Assembly (NCBI GenBank): GCA_025363295.1
Contig: JANYEC010000026.1
Span: forward strand, 5,849-69,848
Direction of reading: 5' to 3'
DNA from: Akkermansiaceae bacterium
Lineage (GTDB): Bacteria; Verrucomicrobiota; Verrucomicrobiia; Verrucomicrobiales; Akkermansiaceae
DNA: 64,000 nt
The position numbers and the translations under genes were made by a program. A model generated the notes under the pieces. That model had not been told where the DNA came from, made no database searches, and saw only the letters and a list, made by a program, of their open reading frames with translations. Shown piece after piece: positions 11,593-22,923 of this stretch (within the stretch, counting starts at the first letter, position 1; each line of letters opens with the position of its first letter).

Positions 11593-11988
11593 TTAGCGTT
11601 TGATGACCTGCGGCGCGATTTCACGGAGAATCGGCAGATCGGCGTCAGCCCATGGGAGTTTGTAGAAATTTTCGGGAGCACACCAAAGAAGAGCTTCATG
11701 CTCATTTGCATGAAGCTCTCCTTCGGAAATTTTGCAGCGAAACGGAAGCAGTCGGATCGTTCTATCAGGATATGCGTAGATCACCGGAGTGAGTGAAGTC
11801 ACGATTTCCACATCGACTGAAAGCTCCTCTCGCATTTCGCGAATGAGGGCGGCGATTGGAGTTTCACCTGGATCGACTTTCCCACCTGGAAACTCCCACA
11901 GGCCACCCAAATGTTTCCCTTGGGGGCGCAAACAGGCGAGGTATCGCCCTTCCAAATCCTCAATCACTCCGCAAACAACATCTATCAT
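11593..11988 (-). CDS. mutT: MutT/NUDIX pyrophosphohydrolase
   Basis: Nudix box WEFPGGKVDPGETPIAALIREMREELSV; C-terminal WADADLPI. Confidence 0.88.
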   Translation of the reverse strand: MIDVVCGVIEDLEGRYLACLRPQGKHLGGLWEFPGGKVDPGETPIAALIREMREELSVDVEIVTSLTPVIYAYPDRTIRLLPFRCKISEGELHANEHEALLWCAPENFYKLPWADADLPILREIAPQVIKR

Positions 11989-12295
11989 TACCGGGAATTT
12001 AGCGCGAAGTGACGCGTTTGGTCGAGTATCCAGTATCGATTTTTGGGTCAATCAGGGGAAACCAGTGCTCTCAAATGCCGTTTTGTCGGAATAAGAGCTT
12101 TCAGGTACACTGAGGCAAATTTTTTCCTAAATTAGGAAGATTTTACCCAATTGCGGCGCTTTTTTAATAAGTTTTATATCCCAAGCTCCTATTAAAACTC
12201 GATAATTTCTAAAATTTAATCCCAGACTACAATTGTAACTCACTCATTTTAAGTAATTTAAAAATTTATTATGTTTTTCCTAATTTCTCCTTGAT

Positions 12296-12320
12296 GTGGG
12301 AGTGTATTTCAGTGTATCTC
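12296..12320 (+). promoter_or_regulatory. candidate MraZ operator (10-bp-phased direct repeats)
   Basis: GTGGG followed by AGTGTATTTC AGTGTATCTC immediately upstream of mraZ, in an AT-rich intergenic region. MraZ is known to bind short direct repeats at 10-bp spacing. Confidence 0.35.
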
Positions 12321-12336
12321 TTAACCGCTGACGCGA

Positions 12337-12804
12337 TTGTCCGCTTTTCCAATGATCACCGACGACCAACGCTACAAGGGTTTTACGCCCTACAAGATGG
12401 ACCCGAAGTTTCGGGTATCCATCCCGACGGCTTGGCGTCCTGAGGCAAACGTGCCTTTGTTCCTTCAATTCTCCATGGTGCATGACATGCCGGTGGTGAA
12501 GGTGTTGAGCACGGAGGCCTACACTGAAAAAGTCGCGTTGATCAAAGGCAGCGACAAAACGCCTGCTGAAAAAGGCAAGCTTCTGGGGAAACTCGCCATG
12601 CTTTGCCGCGAGGTGACTTTGAACGACCAAGGCAAGCTGCTGGTTCCTAAAGACCTCAGCGAAAAAGCGGGCATCACCGCTGAATCTGATGTGGTTCTGG
12701 CTGGCCGTGGCATTTTCTTCGAAGTCTGGAGCAAGTCAAACCACGACAAGGTTCTCGTCATCGAGACCCGCGAAGAGGAAGACGACGATCTCGGAATTTT
12801 CTAA
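12337..12804 (+). CDS. mraZ: dcw cluster transcriptional repressor MraZ
   Basis: Two SpoVT/AbrB-like halves (MDPKFRVSIP; LNDQGKLLVP...GRGIFFEVW); first gene before rsmH. Confidence 0.9.
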   Translation: MSAFPMITDDQRYKGFTPYKMDPKFRVSIPTAWRPEANVPLFLQFSMVHDMPVVKVLSTEAYTEKVALIKGSDKTPAEKGKLLGKLAMLCREVTLNDQGKLLVPKDLSEKAGITAESDVVLAGRGIFFEVWSKSNHDKVLVIETREEEDDDLGIF

Positions 12805-12844
12805 CTTTCCCAAACACTCACCCACCACACACCCAACAGCAGCA

Positions 12845-14410
12845 ATGTTGTTCACCCCACCAACTCTGGCACTTGAAGCGGTCCGCAATACGGCGGCTTC
12901 GGTCGCTCTCGCTCAAGCGTCAGGGTTGGGACTCTTTCTATATGGATGCGCCGAATTCCTCGGGACAGGAGCAAGCGCATCACAACAAACGGATTCCCGC
13001 ACCGCTCCTGGCTGGTTGTCGGTGCGGGGTCCGGTTACTTTCATGGCTGGGCGCACGAAGTCTCTCGGGACAGAGCTTTTCGCGCTTTTTGAAACGATGG
13101 TCCGCACTGCTTCTGGCTGGTTGCCAGTGCGGCCATCGCAAATTTTCTATCAAAGACAGAACCAAGGGCTCGGGACAGCGCAAGGTTTTGTCGATCAAAC
13201 AGATGTCCGCACCGCTCCTGGCTGGTTGTCGGCGCGGCGTCTGGTGACTTTCATGGCTGGGCGTAAGAGGTCTCTCGGGACAGAGCTTCTCTCGCTTTTT
13301 GAAACGATGTGCCGCACCGCTCCTGGCTGGTTGTCAGTGCGGCCATCGCAAATTTTCTATCAAAAGCAAAACCATGGGCTCGGGACAGCACGAGGTTTTG
13401 TCGAACTAACGGATGCCTGCGCTACTTCTGGCTGGTTGTCAGCGCAGGCTTCCGTCGATTTTTCAGAGGCTCCGGTGAATTCCGGAAACTATCATCACCC
13501 GGTTTTTCCGATCGAGACTGCCCATTGGATTGGTGCTGCTCCAGATAAGTTCATTATCGACGGCACGCTGGGTGGCGGAGGACATAGCGAGATTTTTCTC
13601 AAAGCTGGGGCTCGAGTGTTAGGGGTTGATCGCGATCCAGAGGCCTTGGCTCACGCAAAGGCAAGGCTTGCCATCTTCGGAAACCGCTTTTCCACATGGG
13701 AGGGCAACTTCTCACAGATTCAGGAAATCCCCGAGATCCAAAGGGGGGAACGGGCTGATGGCCTGCTGATGGATCTCGGGGTTTCTTCGCGTCAGTTAGA
13801 TTCAGCAGTTCGTGGATTTTCCTTTATGCGAGAAGGTCCACTGGACATGCGGATGGGGCCATCCAGTCCGCGCACTGCCGCAGACGTGGTGAATCACTGG
13901 GCGGAAGCGGACCTTGTGAAAATTCTGTTTGAATTCGGTGAAGAATCGAAAGCACGCCGGATCGCGGGAGCAGTTGTTAGACAGCGTGCCGAGAAGCCAT
14001 TCGCCACCACCCTGGACCTTGCAACTTGCGTCGAGCGCGCGATTGGTCGCAAAGGCCGCACGCACCCGGCCACCAAAACATTTCAAGCAATTCGGATGGC
14101 AGTGAATGAAGAGTTAGAATCACTTGCCACCGCACTCGCCGCCGCACCGTCGGTTCTCAAGCCCGGAGGTCGTTTGCTGATTATCACTTTTCACAGTTTG
14201 GAGGATCGGATGGTGAAGCGGTTTTTAAAACACCGATCCACCGAATTTCTTGATGATCCGGGGTGGCCCGAGCCCCGCCCGAATCCGGATTACCAATTCC
14301 GGCTGCTGGCGAGAAAAGCCATCATCCCCACCGCTGAGGAAACATCCCTGAACCCGCGAGCCCGCAGTGCAAAACTGCGGGTTGCCCAGCTTTTAGACCC
14401 CAAGCTATGA
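12845..14410 (+). CDS. rsmH: 16S rRNA m4C1402 methyltransferase RsmH/MraW; start either ATG 12845 (repeat-containing extension) or GTG 13475
   Basis: HHPVFPIE, IDGTLGGGGHS, DLGVSSRQLD, GPLDMRM, HPATKTFQAIRMAVNEEL, ITFHSLEDRMVK, NPRARSAKLR. Confidence 0.95.
   Translation: MLFTPPTLALEAVRNTAASVALAQASGLGLFLYGCAEFLGTGASASQQTDSRTAPGWLSVRGPVTFMAGRTKSLGTELFALFETMVRTASGWLPVRPSQIFYQRQNQGLGTAQGFVDQTDVRTAPGWLSARRLVTFMAGRKRSLGTELLSLFETMCRTAPGWLSVRPSQIFYQKQNHGLGTARGFVELTDACATSGWLSAQASVDFSEAPVNSGNYHHPVFPIETAHWIGAAPDKFIIDGTLGGGGHSEIFLKAGARVLGVDRDPEALAHAKARLAIFGNRFSTWEGNFSQIQEIPEIQRGERADGLLMDLGVSSRQLDSAVRGFSFMREGPLDMRMGPSSPRTAADVVNHWAEADLVKILFEFGEESKARRIAGAVVRQRAEKPFATTLDLATCVERAIGRKGRTHPATKTFQAIRMAVNEELESLATALAAAPSVLKPGGRLLIITFHSLEDRMVKRFLKHRSTEFLDDPGWPEPRPNPDYQFRLLARKAIIPTAEETSLNPRARSAKLRVAQLLDPKL
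12959..13483 (+). repeat. five tandem 105-bp units (A/B alternating), each with a CTCGGGACAG box and a hairpin; putative cis-regulatory RNA array
   Basis: CTCGGGACAG at 12959, 13064, 13169, 13274 and 13379. Hairpins at 12997, 13102, 13207, 13312 and 13416 with loop CTYCTGGCTGGTTGY and covarying stems. Confidence 0.92.
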
Positions 14411-22062: not shown

Positions 22063-22923
22063 ATGAAATCTAACACCCTGCCAGTCAAACGCCGCCCCGC
22101 TCCAAAAGGGATCTTCAAACGCCTGAGTGCTGTCACCCGGAAACAACGTGTCGCTGCCACGGCGACCGCTGATATGGAAGTTGAGGACAGTGGCTCGAAA
22201 ATATCACGTGCCCTGACGATCATCTTTTTATTCCACATCGTTGCGATCGGCTTGATTTTCGTTCATAAGCAATTCCTTGATGGTCGCCCGAGTGAACTCA
22301 CTGGAGTGAAAGCACCTGAAAAAGCCAAATCGCTTACTGTGGTGGCTCCATCAGTCGCCCGTGCCGATCTCCCGCGTTTGGCTTCGGGTGAAAAACCATA
22401 TATTGTTAGGGCTGGAGATAATTATTCACGTATCGCCGAGGCGGAGGGTGTGGACGAGGGGGATCTCCGTTTGGTCAACAAGCATGTTGATATCGGGCCG
22501 GGATTGATTCTCAGAGTGCCACCTAAACGGATTGTGGCCGTGGAGTCTCCTGAAGTTACCGCGATCCGGAATAACACTCCTGTCGTCCGTGACCAGGGAC
22601 TGGTAGAGGTAGATGTGAAAGACGCTCCGCGCGCACAACTGGTTCGTCCTAACATCCATCCGATTGTGCTCGTCCCAAAAGGTTCCACTCCATCCCATGC
22701 TGAGGCTCCGAAAGTTTCACTTGCGACCCATTCCCCAACATCTATCAGCAACAACTCTGTGCCTGTTAGCGCTTCTGGAAAAACCTACCTAGTTCAGCAA
22801 GGTGATAGCGTTTGGAGGATCGCCAATCGTTTCAAAGTGGGTCAGGACCAGTTGATGCGTGCTAACGGAATTAGCGATGCCCGCAAGATCAAACCTGGCA
22901 TGAGTTTGTCGATTCCAAAGTAA
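22063..22923 (+). CDS. membrane-anchored LysM peptidoglycan-binding protein (two LysM domains)
   Basis: TM IIFLFHIVAIGLIFV; YIVRAGDNYSRIA...GLILRVP and YLVQQGDSVWRIANRFKV...PGMSLSIP. Confidence 0.88.
   Translation: MKSNTLPVKRRPAPKGIFKRLSAVTRKQRVAATATADMEVEDSGSKISRALTIIFLFHIVAIGLIFVHKQFLDGRPSELTGVKAPEKAKSLTVVAPSVARADLPRLASGEKPYIVRAGDNYSRIAEAEGVDEGDLRLVNKHVDIGPGLILRVPPKRIVAVESPEVTAIRNNTPVVRDQGLVEVDVKDAPRAQLVRPNIHPIVLVPKGSTPSHAEAPKVSLATHSPTSISNNSVPVSASGKTYLVQQGDSVWRIANRFKVGQDQLMRANGISDARKIKPGMSLSIPK

Follow-up and report, generated by a model that had tools for sequence, protein, structure and literature searches.

A predicted RNA hairpin array within the extended rsmH reading frame of Luteolibacter and other Akkermansiaceae

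The pairing of mraZ with rsmH (mraW) at the head of the division and cell-wall (dcw) operon is an old puzzle; the post-transcriptional control of this operon, beyond its promoter, is poorly understood, and we know of no regulator of rsmH expression. In the stretch of 64,000 nucleotides (nt) analysed here (hereafter the window; Akkermansiaceae bacterium, assembly GCA_025363295.1, contig JANYEC010000026.1, positions 5,849 to 69,848 of the forward strand), five exact 105-nt units of alternating A and B type occupy positions 12959-13483, between mraZ and the part of rsmH that encodes the catalytic domain. What is being maintained at this place, an RNA, a DNA element or a protein repeat, and what might it do? 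Taken as a whole, our answer is a structured RNA array inside the rsmH open reading frame (ORF) whose loops would serve as a docking platform for a trans-acting factor, and to this whole we assign a probability of roughly 0.55. Its structural part, namely that ten RNA hairpins succeed one another in the array, on the strand of the rsmH mRNA and within a maintained ORF, we hold with high confidence on the strength of comparative sequence analysis.

Architecture, folding and covariation of the repeat units

The locus had first been interpreted by inspection of the letters alone (the sequence-only reading), which described a period of 105 base pairs (bp) and, through the A/B alternation, a higher-order repeat of 210 bp. 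Both were recovered. An exact search placed CTCGGGACAG at 12959, 13064, 13169, 13274 and 13379, with no further copy in the window; Tandem Repeats Finder returned the period of 105 plus a 210-nt higher-order period, at 85% identity and a score of 709; and a repeat search gave five 52-nt hairpin segments in register together with a 210-nt pair at 89%. All units stand in direct orientation. The 11-mer CTGGCTGGTTG, part of a loop described below, has five plus-strand copies at the array and, elsewhere in the 3.48-Mb genome, two opposite-strand copies only, which is about the number expected by chance.

One hairpin per unit had been drawn in that interpretation, with stems CGCACCG/CGGTGCG in unit 1, CGCACTG/CAGTGCG in unit 2 and CCTGCGCT/AGCGCAGG in unit 5. 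The hairpin is present and these pairs are correct, but the real stem is longer, about 12-14 bp with one bulge, and it carries a 17-nt loop, GCUCCUGGCUGGUUGUC, of which the core UGGCUGGUUG is nearly invariant. Moreover, every unit holds two hairpins rather than one: the conserved "box" is itself the loop (CUCGGGACAG) of a second hairpin, with a stem of about 12 bp and again one bulge. Units 3 and 4 also have one A.C mismatch apiece in the stem, which had been overlooked. In the minimum free energy (MFE) fold, at -285 kcal/mol over 676 nt, the box is closed by C-G and U-A pairs around a CGGGAC hexaloop, the A-to-B box hairpin is extended through UUUCA/UGAAA, and UGGCU is left unpaired at this hairpin and also at the apex of the long one. 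The ten hairpins are as follows.

12946..12980, + strand: box hairpin 1, loop CUCGGGACAG at 12959-12968
12991..13032, + strand: long hairpin 1, loop GCUCCUGGCUGGUUGUC at 13004-13020
13051..13085, + strand: box hairpin 2, A-to-B junction type, stem GCGCACGAAG(U)CU / AGCUUUUCGCGC
13096..13137, + strand: long hairpin 2
13156..13190, + strand: box hairpin 3, B-to-A junction type
13201..13242, + strand: long hairpin 3, one A.C mismatch
13261..13295, + strand: box hairpin 4
13306..13347, + strand: long hairpin 4, one C.A mismatch
13366..13400, + strand: box hairpin 5
13411..13452, + strand: long hairpin 5, an inverted repeat with 15-nt arms, 93% complementary

The evidence that carries this structure is covariation between species. 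For the long hairpin we used an ungapped alignment of 63 distinct units from 17 species, with a stem of 12 pairs and one bulge, and as controls we slid the 3' partners by 1-3 columns and made 500 shuffles. RNAalifold recovers the long stem, with double compensatory changes at 10 of 15 pairs. Within the 63 units, 89.6% of cells are paired, against 34-54% in the slid controls; 132 cells show double changes where the slid controls have 14-30; the covariation score comes to 0.49, that of the controls to about 0.1; and none of the 500 shuffles attains the observed pairing or covariation values. When 125 distinct units were aligned to the model, 92.2% of cells were paired (31-47% when slid) and the double changes numbered 273. 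The box hairpin behaves in the same manner in both of its junction types, with 90.7% paired in 25 units of A-to-B type (30-48% when slid) and 85.5% in 37 units of B-to-A type (37-43%). At several pairs of the box stems GC, CG, AU and UA all occur as alternatives, and the stems vary by junction type and species, for instance GCGGAUGAAG(U)CU/AGCUUCAUUCGC, GACGA(A)U/AUCGUC and AAGGCCGCG/CGCGGUUUU, with AAAACGCUG/CAGCGUUUU and AGAAUUCUGCG/CGCAGGAUUUU as further variants.

While the stems drift, both loops are nearly invariant, wobble positions included, across 31 loci of at least three genera. The proposal that selection acts on nucleic-acid structure is thus borne out by co-varying stems and frozen loops. 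One more co-varying helix lies in the first 100 nt or so of the frame (22 loci). Because G-U pairs exceed A-C pairs in the long hairpin by 82 to 33, we assign the structure to the plus strand, that is, to the rsmH mRNA. Several genera have kept a large and strongly co-varying RNA structure at this point of the dcw operon, past the promoter.

How widely is the element distributed? Within Luteolibacter, the genus of the window, DNA similarity identifies the mraZ-rsmH spacer in 22 of the 24 genomes. Matches to a covariance model of the long hairpin (R1) were obtained in 4 of the 401 genomes sampled from the phylum and in 16 of the 81 from the family, the array being found in 3 of the 20 Akkermansiaceae genera sampled (Luteolibacter, g16 and g205), always as one cluster per genome, with 2-8 copies in these matches. 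In genus g16 the cluster lies once more between mraZ and rsmH with the frame open. Genera g204 and g208 have, at the same position, two to three divergent modules built as AUGGCUGGGCGG-stem-(..GGGAC..)-stem, which are in frame with RsmH and are not accompanied by the long hairpin; the mraZ-rsmH interval of the g208 locus (L064) reads UUCAUGGCUGGGCGG-stem-CAUGGGACG-stem in three copies, and that of the g204 locus (L065) reads UUAUGGCUGGGCGGGUGGAGGAGC-AAGGGACG-GCUCCUCUCCCGCC in two. The box module may have preceded the long hairpin in the history of the unit.

The reading frame and the encoded peptide

Does the array stand in an untranslated leader between mraZ and rsmH, as had been supposed? 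This idea had to be given up. No stop codon interrupts the rsmH frame within the spacer, first in 17 of 17 complete loci and then in 31 of 31, and an in-frame ATG, 12-50 nt past the mraZ stop, leads into RsmH in every one of the 31 (window position 12845). Over these loci the rsmH frame has not a single stop in 6146 codons, compared with 93 and 110 stops in the other two plus-strand frames and 85-185 in the minus-strand frames. The spacings between successive long loops (102, 105, 108, 111, 114, 117, 123, 210 and 213 nt) are multiples of 3 without exception. The parts of the locus on either side of the hairpins are listed here.

12337..12804, + strand: mraZ, first dcw gene (Pfam MraZ PF02381, E 5.4e-08; listed ORF)
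12805..12844, + strand: C/A-rich spacer (CACTCACCCACCACACACCCAAC...) before the ATG, with no Shine-Dalgarno-like sequence, nucleotide-conserved across species (22-locus alignment)
12845..12847, + strand: conserved ATG opening the extended rsmH frame (MLF(T/N)PPT...; MLFTPPT in the window; 31 of 31 complete loci)
12845..12945, + strand: leader part of the ORF, with a long-range helix of CCAACUCUGGCACUUGA... with ...UCAAGCGUCAGGGUUGG and an inner UUCG-type hairpin (MFE fold; RNAalifold, 22 loci)
13475..13477, + strand: in-frame GTG after AGAGG, which may be a secondary start and coincides with the canonical RsmH N-terminus (from sequence; not conserved elsewhere)
13490..14410, + strand: RsmH (MraW) methyltransferase domain and stop (PF01795, E 9.8e-101)

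The PF01795 match covers residues 216-515 of the 521-residue product and positions 3-307 of the 309 in the profile. The species whose units measure 114 nt lack a start codon close to the RsmH domain (...SESLSPEGYHLPVL), two further loci (L013, L011) likewise have none at the position of the window's GTG, and many species are without any alternative start near the domain. Public databases already hold "RsmH" proteins of 417-589 amino acids (aa), in 193 clusters with the extension, and PF01795 is present in at least 119 of the 120 extended-RsmH clusters listed. An N-terminus of the form M(L/I)FN.P.L directly after mraZ also occurs in some array-free genera of the family, so that the upstream start may be ancestral, the array having come to lie between start and catalytic domain. 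At one locus, L023, tblastn matches the rsmH core as two separate segments and the frame closes at 127 codons, through either a frameshift or an error of assembly; the genome in question (G008, near-complete and in two contigs) still has a six-unit array.

Is the frame, then, kept for the sake of its peptide? Substitution rates at the three codon positions are 0.18/0.19/0.20 in the array of the 105-nt group, compared with 0.11/0.08/0.45 in its RsmH core, and 0.16/0.16/0.235 compared with 0.16/0.13/0.50 in the 114-nt group. Even the unpaired linkers are flat (0.24/0.26/0.26 and 0.22/0.22/0.28), and the loops are nearly frozen, at rates of 0.00-0.12. The ratio of nonsynonymous to synonymous substitution (dN/dS, Nei-Gojobori) is 0.36-0.96 in the array and 0.05-0.15 in the core; dS is 0.12-0.47 in the former and 0.5-2.9 in the latter, hence 2-11 times lower in the array, and dN is 1.3-3.8 times higher there. 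Loop codons are fixed in spite of four to six synonymous alternatives (GGC in 121 of 122, TTG in 121 of 122, GCT in 108 of 122), and the box is translated in two ways: 106 units encode LGT there and 15 encode (G)SGQ, with compensating spacings of 106 and 104 nt that bring the frame back within one unit. AlphaFold2, given an alignment of 38 sequences, predicts residues 1-215 without secondary structure at a predicted local distance difference test score (pLDDT) of 21-34, and most of the methyltransferase domain at 80-96. Searched against Pfam, the extension passes the cut-off of no family, INT_rpt being sub-threshold only. In short, the frame is strictly kept and the array peptide is a passenger, almost unselected and predicted to be disordered.

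These data bear on the explanation that the array is a protein repeat domain, in which repeats of 35-39 residues (LGT...APGWLSAR) would form an N-terminal module of RsmH, such as an arginine-rich rRNA-binding tail, and the hairpins would be incidental. Frames open in all 31 loci, unit lengths in multiples of 3, the annotated long RsmH proteins, the conservation of GWL and LGT in translation and a dN/dS below 1 would all suit such a module. Against it stand the stronger constraint on synonymous sites and the faster nonsynonymous change, each relative to the core, the lack of codon periodicity even in linkers, the invariant wobble positions of loop codons, the two readings of the box, the low pLDDT without secondary structure and the lack of a Pfam family; furthermore, amino-acid changes encoded by the two arms of a stem are correlated in such a way that the base pairs are kept. 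We therefore consider a protein repeat domain very unlikely. Conservation at the amino-acid level with stems freely broken by synonymous changes, the outcome that would have spoken against a structured nucleic acid, is not what we see: the rates are flat over codon positions, the wobble bases invariant and the stems co-varying. The locus thus offers a natural case of RNA-level over protein-level selection in a bacterial ORF, with a frame that is kept, a peptide that drifts and a motif read in two frames. It also calls for caution in annotation, for the public "RsmH" proteins of 417-589 aa carry an RNA element rather than an additional protein domain.

Possible roles of the array

What could such an array do in the rsmH message? 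We suppose that it arose and was amplified, always by multiples of 3 nt, within the rsmH ORF on the 5' side of the methyltransferase domain, the ancestral start codon possibly being upstream. Since the start codon lies upstream, ribosomes would have to unwind every hairpin in order to make RsmH, and the gene order with its overlapping stop and start codons suggests that the same transit applies to the coupled ftsL-like gene, ftsI, murE and the genes that follow. Loops that remain frozen across genera while their stems drift usually indicate that a trans-acting macromolecule recognises them. With moderate to low confidence, we take each invariant loop to be a place where one and the same sequence-specific factor, most likely a protein, docks; once bound, it would block ribosomes, or ribosomes would strip it off. 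The array would in this way either set how much RsmH and dcw product is made or soak up the factor as a sponge sensitive to translation, with copy number (1-8 between species) tuning the strength. A sensor or protein-binding platform had been proposed from the outset, and we infer a role of this kind as well. The most specific version is a translation-gated riboregulatory platform, in which UGGCU- and CGGGAC-loops bind the factor, ribosomes displace it or are blocked by it, RsmH together with the coupled divisome and peptidoglycan output is tied to translational capacity or 30S biogenesis, and copy number serves as evolutionary tuning; this version is tentative, and we consider it possible but on the doubtful side.

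Several points weigh against this reading or limit what the alignments can say for it. The units are paralogues under concerted evolution, probably by gene conversion, and for that reason the counts of cells overstate the independent compensatory events; the up to four or five pair types at a single pair, together with the slid controls, argue against an artefact of covariation. Invariant positions carry no covariation signal, so that covariation does not speak to the fine structure of the loops. Pairing between box loop and long loop gives a best duplex of -7.0 kcal/mol, no better than shuffled loops with a mean of -7.5, and a kissing interaction was rejected on this ground. The asymmetry between strands and the covariation of the hairpins would also fit hairpins of single-stranded DNA formed by the top strand, and weak selection on the peptide would be compatible with a dN/dS that falls somewhat short of 1. 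Finally, no binding partner was found, the candidate CsrA being absent from 12 genomes.

CsrA came into consideration because sites of CsrA/RsmE contain GGA in a hairpin loop. The box hexaloop CGGGAC has GGA at loop positions 3-5, the long loop is without it, and the array, like the CsrB/RsmZ sponges, displays one short loop motif on many hairpins. In contrast to these sponges, it is part of the ORF of an mRNA rather than a free small RNA, and it has a second, unrelated loop motif, UGGCUGGUUG. CsrA (PF02599) was not found in the window's own genome or in 11 further array-bearing or related genomes, in searches whose positive controls matched, and a CsrA sponge was rejected on this absence and on the location of the array in an ORF kept in all 31 loci.

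The main rival dispenses with a trans factor altogether. The array would then be a self-contained RNA element, with determinants of stability or processing (RNase III or RNase E sites, or blocks to 3'-exonucleases, which would uncouple mraZ from the downstream mRNA) or with a cascade of pauses or weak terminators that a closely following ribosome suppresses and that would couple dcw transcription to translation. Its stems are indeed GC-rich and stable, as the free energy of the fold indicates, and a conserved tract rich in U comes after the long hairpins (consensus ...TTTTTC, with at least 90% T in alignment column 60), while B-to-A box stems end in GGUUUUG. A pattern scan of 11900-13700 found 10 terminator-like sites where 2.7 are expected, two of them within the array, and the strict upkeep of the ORF suits a need for ribosome transit. 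On the other hand, intrinsic termination is ill served by loops of 10 and 17 nt and by a U-tract set off by a gap of 3-4 nt, both terminator-like matches within the array are small sub-hairpins and not the conserved hairpins, and the frozen state of two loop sequences across at least three genera, with stems drifting, is left unexplained. We accordingly rate a self-contained element as improbable, though it deserves attention before any other alternative. In the B-type units (13128-13140 and 13338-13350) the 3' arm of the long hairpin can form a small UGCG-GCCAU-CGCA hairpin, followed by AAUUUUCU; this site was flagged as terminator-like by the pattern scan, and the small hairpin could represent an alternative structure. 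A leader-peptide attenuator was also rejected, the ORF being fused in frame to RsmH and no convincing terminator being found at the conserved hairpins.

A third possibility is an element acting at the level of DNA within the rsmH ORF, whether as palindromes resembling repetitive extragenic palindromes (REP) and bacterial interspersed mosaic elements (BIME), as substrates of HUH enzymes (Y1/RAYT type) or as iterated sites for a DNA-binding protein such as MraZ. The alternation of A and B units in a tandem cluster recalls BIMEs, and, as in REP/BIME, imperfect palindromes stand in tandem within an operon; a RAYT/Y1_Tnp-like domain occupies exactly the same position in the RsmH of Akkermansia, Y1_Tnp is matched about 10 times in the window's own genome, and tolerance of G-T would hold for top-strand DNA hairpins too. 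REP/BIME, however, come in tens to hundreds of copies, extragenic and in alternating orientation, whereas the array is a single locus inside the rsmH ORF, without dispersed copies, with all hairpins direct, and conserved in its loops rather than in its stems. Variable stems with invariant loops point to an RNA recognised through the loop, where operators of double-stranded DNA would conserve half-sites, and the array motifs are unlike the putative MraZ operator repeats 5' of mraZ (GTGGGA-GTGTA-N5-GTGTA). A DNA-level element consequently seems to us quite unlikely, less so than a protein repeat domain. Transcribed REPs are known to stabilise mRNA; a dispersed REP-like family was rejected here, since both the motif and the covariance model match one cluster per genome.

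Is the array at least related to a known RNA? The sequence-only reading had suggested a counterpart of the mraW RNA motif and a search with its Rfam model. That motif, RF01746, is described from Actinomycetales (Weinberg et al. 2010, PMC2864571). Both are conserved RNAs of hairpin type on the 5' side of the rsmH/mraW catalytic domain at the dcw head, and this likeness of position is what homology would have in its favour; the mraW motif is a single element of an untranslated region in Actinomycetales, whereas the array consists of 1-8 tandem two-hairpin units within an ORF in Verrucomicrobiales (Luteolibacter, Akkermansiaceae), another phylum. A cmscan of 12200-14000 with all families of Rfam 15, permissive filters and E<=10 returned no mraW match and only three unrelated matches at chance level. 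The suggested kinship was dropped, and homology to RF01746 appears extremely improbable, more so than any other alternative weighed here.

Other systems offer likeness without kinship. The ToxI RNAs of type III toxin-antitoxin systems are likewise head-to-tail structured units directly 5' of a protein gene, but their units measure about 34-36 nt and precede a gene for an endoribonuclease toxin, while the array has units of 105-117 nt in the ORF of the RsmH gene at a conserved chromosomal locus; an antitoxin array was rejected, the downstream domain being the RsmH methyltransferase. As for mimicry of, or complementarity to, rRNA, short resemblances to conserved 16S segments are at the chance level for 8-mers; the assembly is without rRNA genes. 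The closest functional analogy lies in elements embedded in the ORFs of RNA viruses, such as cis-acting replication elements and the Rev response element of human immunodeficiency virus, which share with the array suppressed synonymous variation and co-varying stems in a translated region; the latter is a multi-site platform for an RNA-binding protein, much like the role proposed for the array. Different from these viral elements, the array sits in a chromosomal housekeeping gene of bacteria, consists of simple hairpins amplified in tandem, and encodes a peptide that is apparently dispensable. The literature that we searched contained no paper describing the array element, and we judge the structured RNA array, lying in a putatively translated region, to be real and apparently undescribed. 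It constitutes, moreover, an easily testable system.

Neighbouring genes and other RsmH extensions

In the window the dcw genes follow in the order mraZ, rsmH, ftsL-like ORF, ftsI, murE, murF, mraY, murD, a LysM gene and ftsW. The operon is tightly packed with overlapping stops and starts of neighbours, the rsmH stop overlapping the ATG of the next ORF (14407). The LysM-domain gene (22063-22923) lies within the cluster between murD and ftsW. Just 5' of mraZ, an AT-rich segment at 12293-12325 contains GTGGGA-GTGTA-TTTCA-GTGTA, closely spaced direct repeats of GTG(G/T); from its letters it looks like an MraZ operator at the dcw promoter, and its sequence is unrelated to the array motifs. MraZ itself diverges far faster within the genus than the adjoining RsmH core (32-73% against 65-88% identity to the window's proteins by tblastn, L008-L027).

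Judged by sequence, an N-terminal extension of RsmH is present in several genera of the family, its content differing by genus. In the Akkermansia-type genus g15 (L071, L080-L096), the mraZ-rsmH interval encodes about 215 aa in frame with RsmH, an extension found in 17 of 19 genomes with frames of 490-533 aa, and it evolves as a protein, with 29-75% identity. It contains the NHVHV motif of RAYT/IS200-like HUH proteins (LLAWSICRNHVHVIAEL), matches Pfam Y1_Tnp below the cut-off (E 0.0035), and gives a blastp match (7e-11) to an 889-aa protein of the window's own genome, in its Y1-domain region; this would be an unexpected, putative fusion of a RAYT-like domain to a 16S methyltransferase. The extension has an "RPGWL" motif too, but the wobble base of its Gly codon varies, as in a protein; homology between the array and the Akkermansia extension was on this account not upheld. 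In the window's own genome, three long frames of 889, 1072 and 1220 aa (C68, C40 and C30; L075, L077 and L079) contain a Y1_Tnp domain (IS200-like HUH) deep inside.

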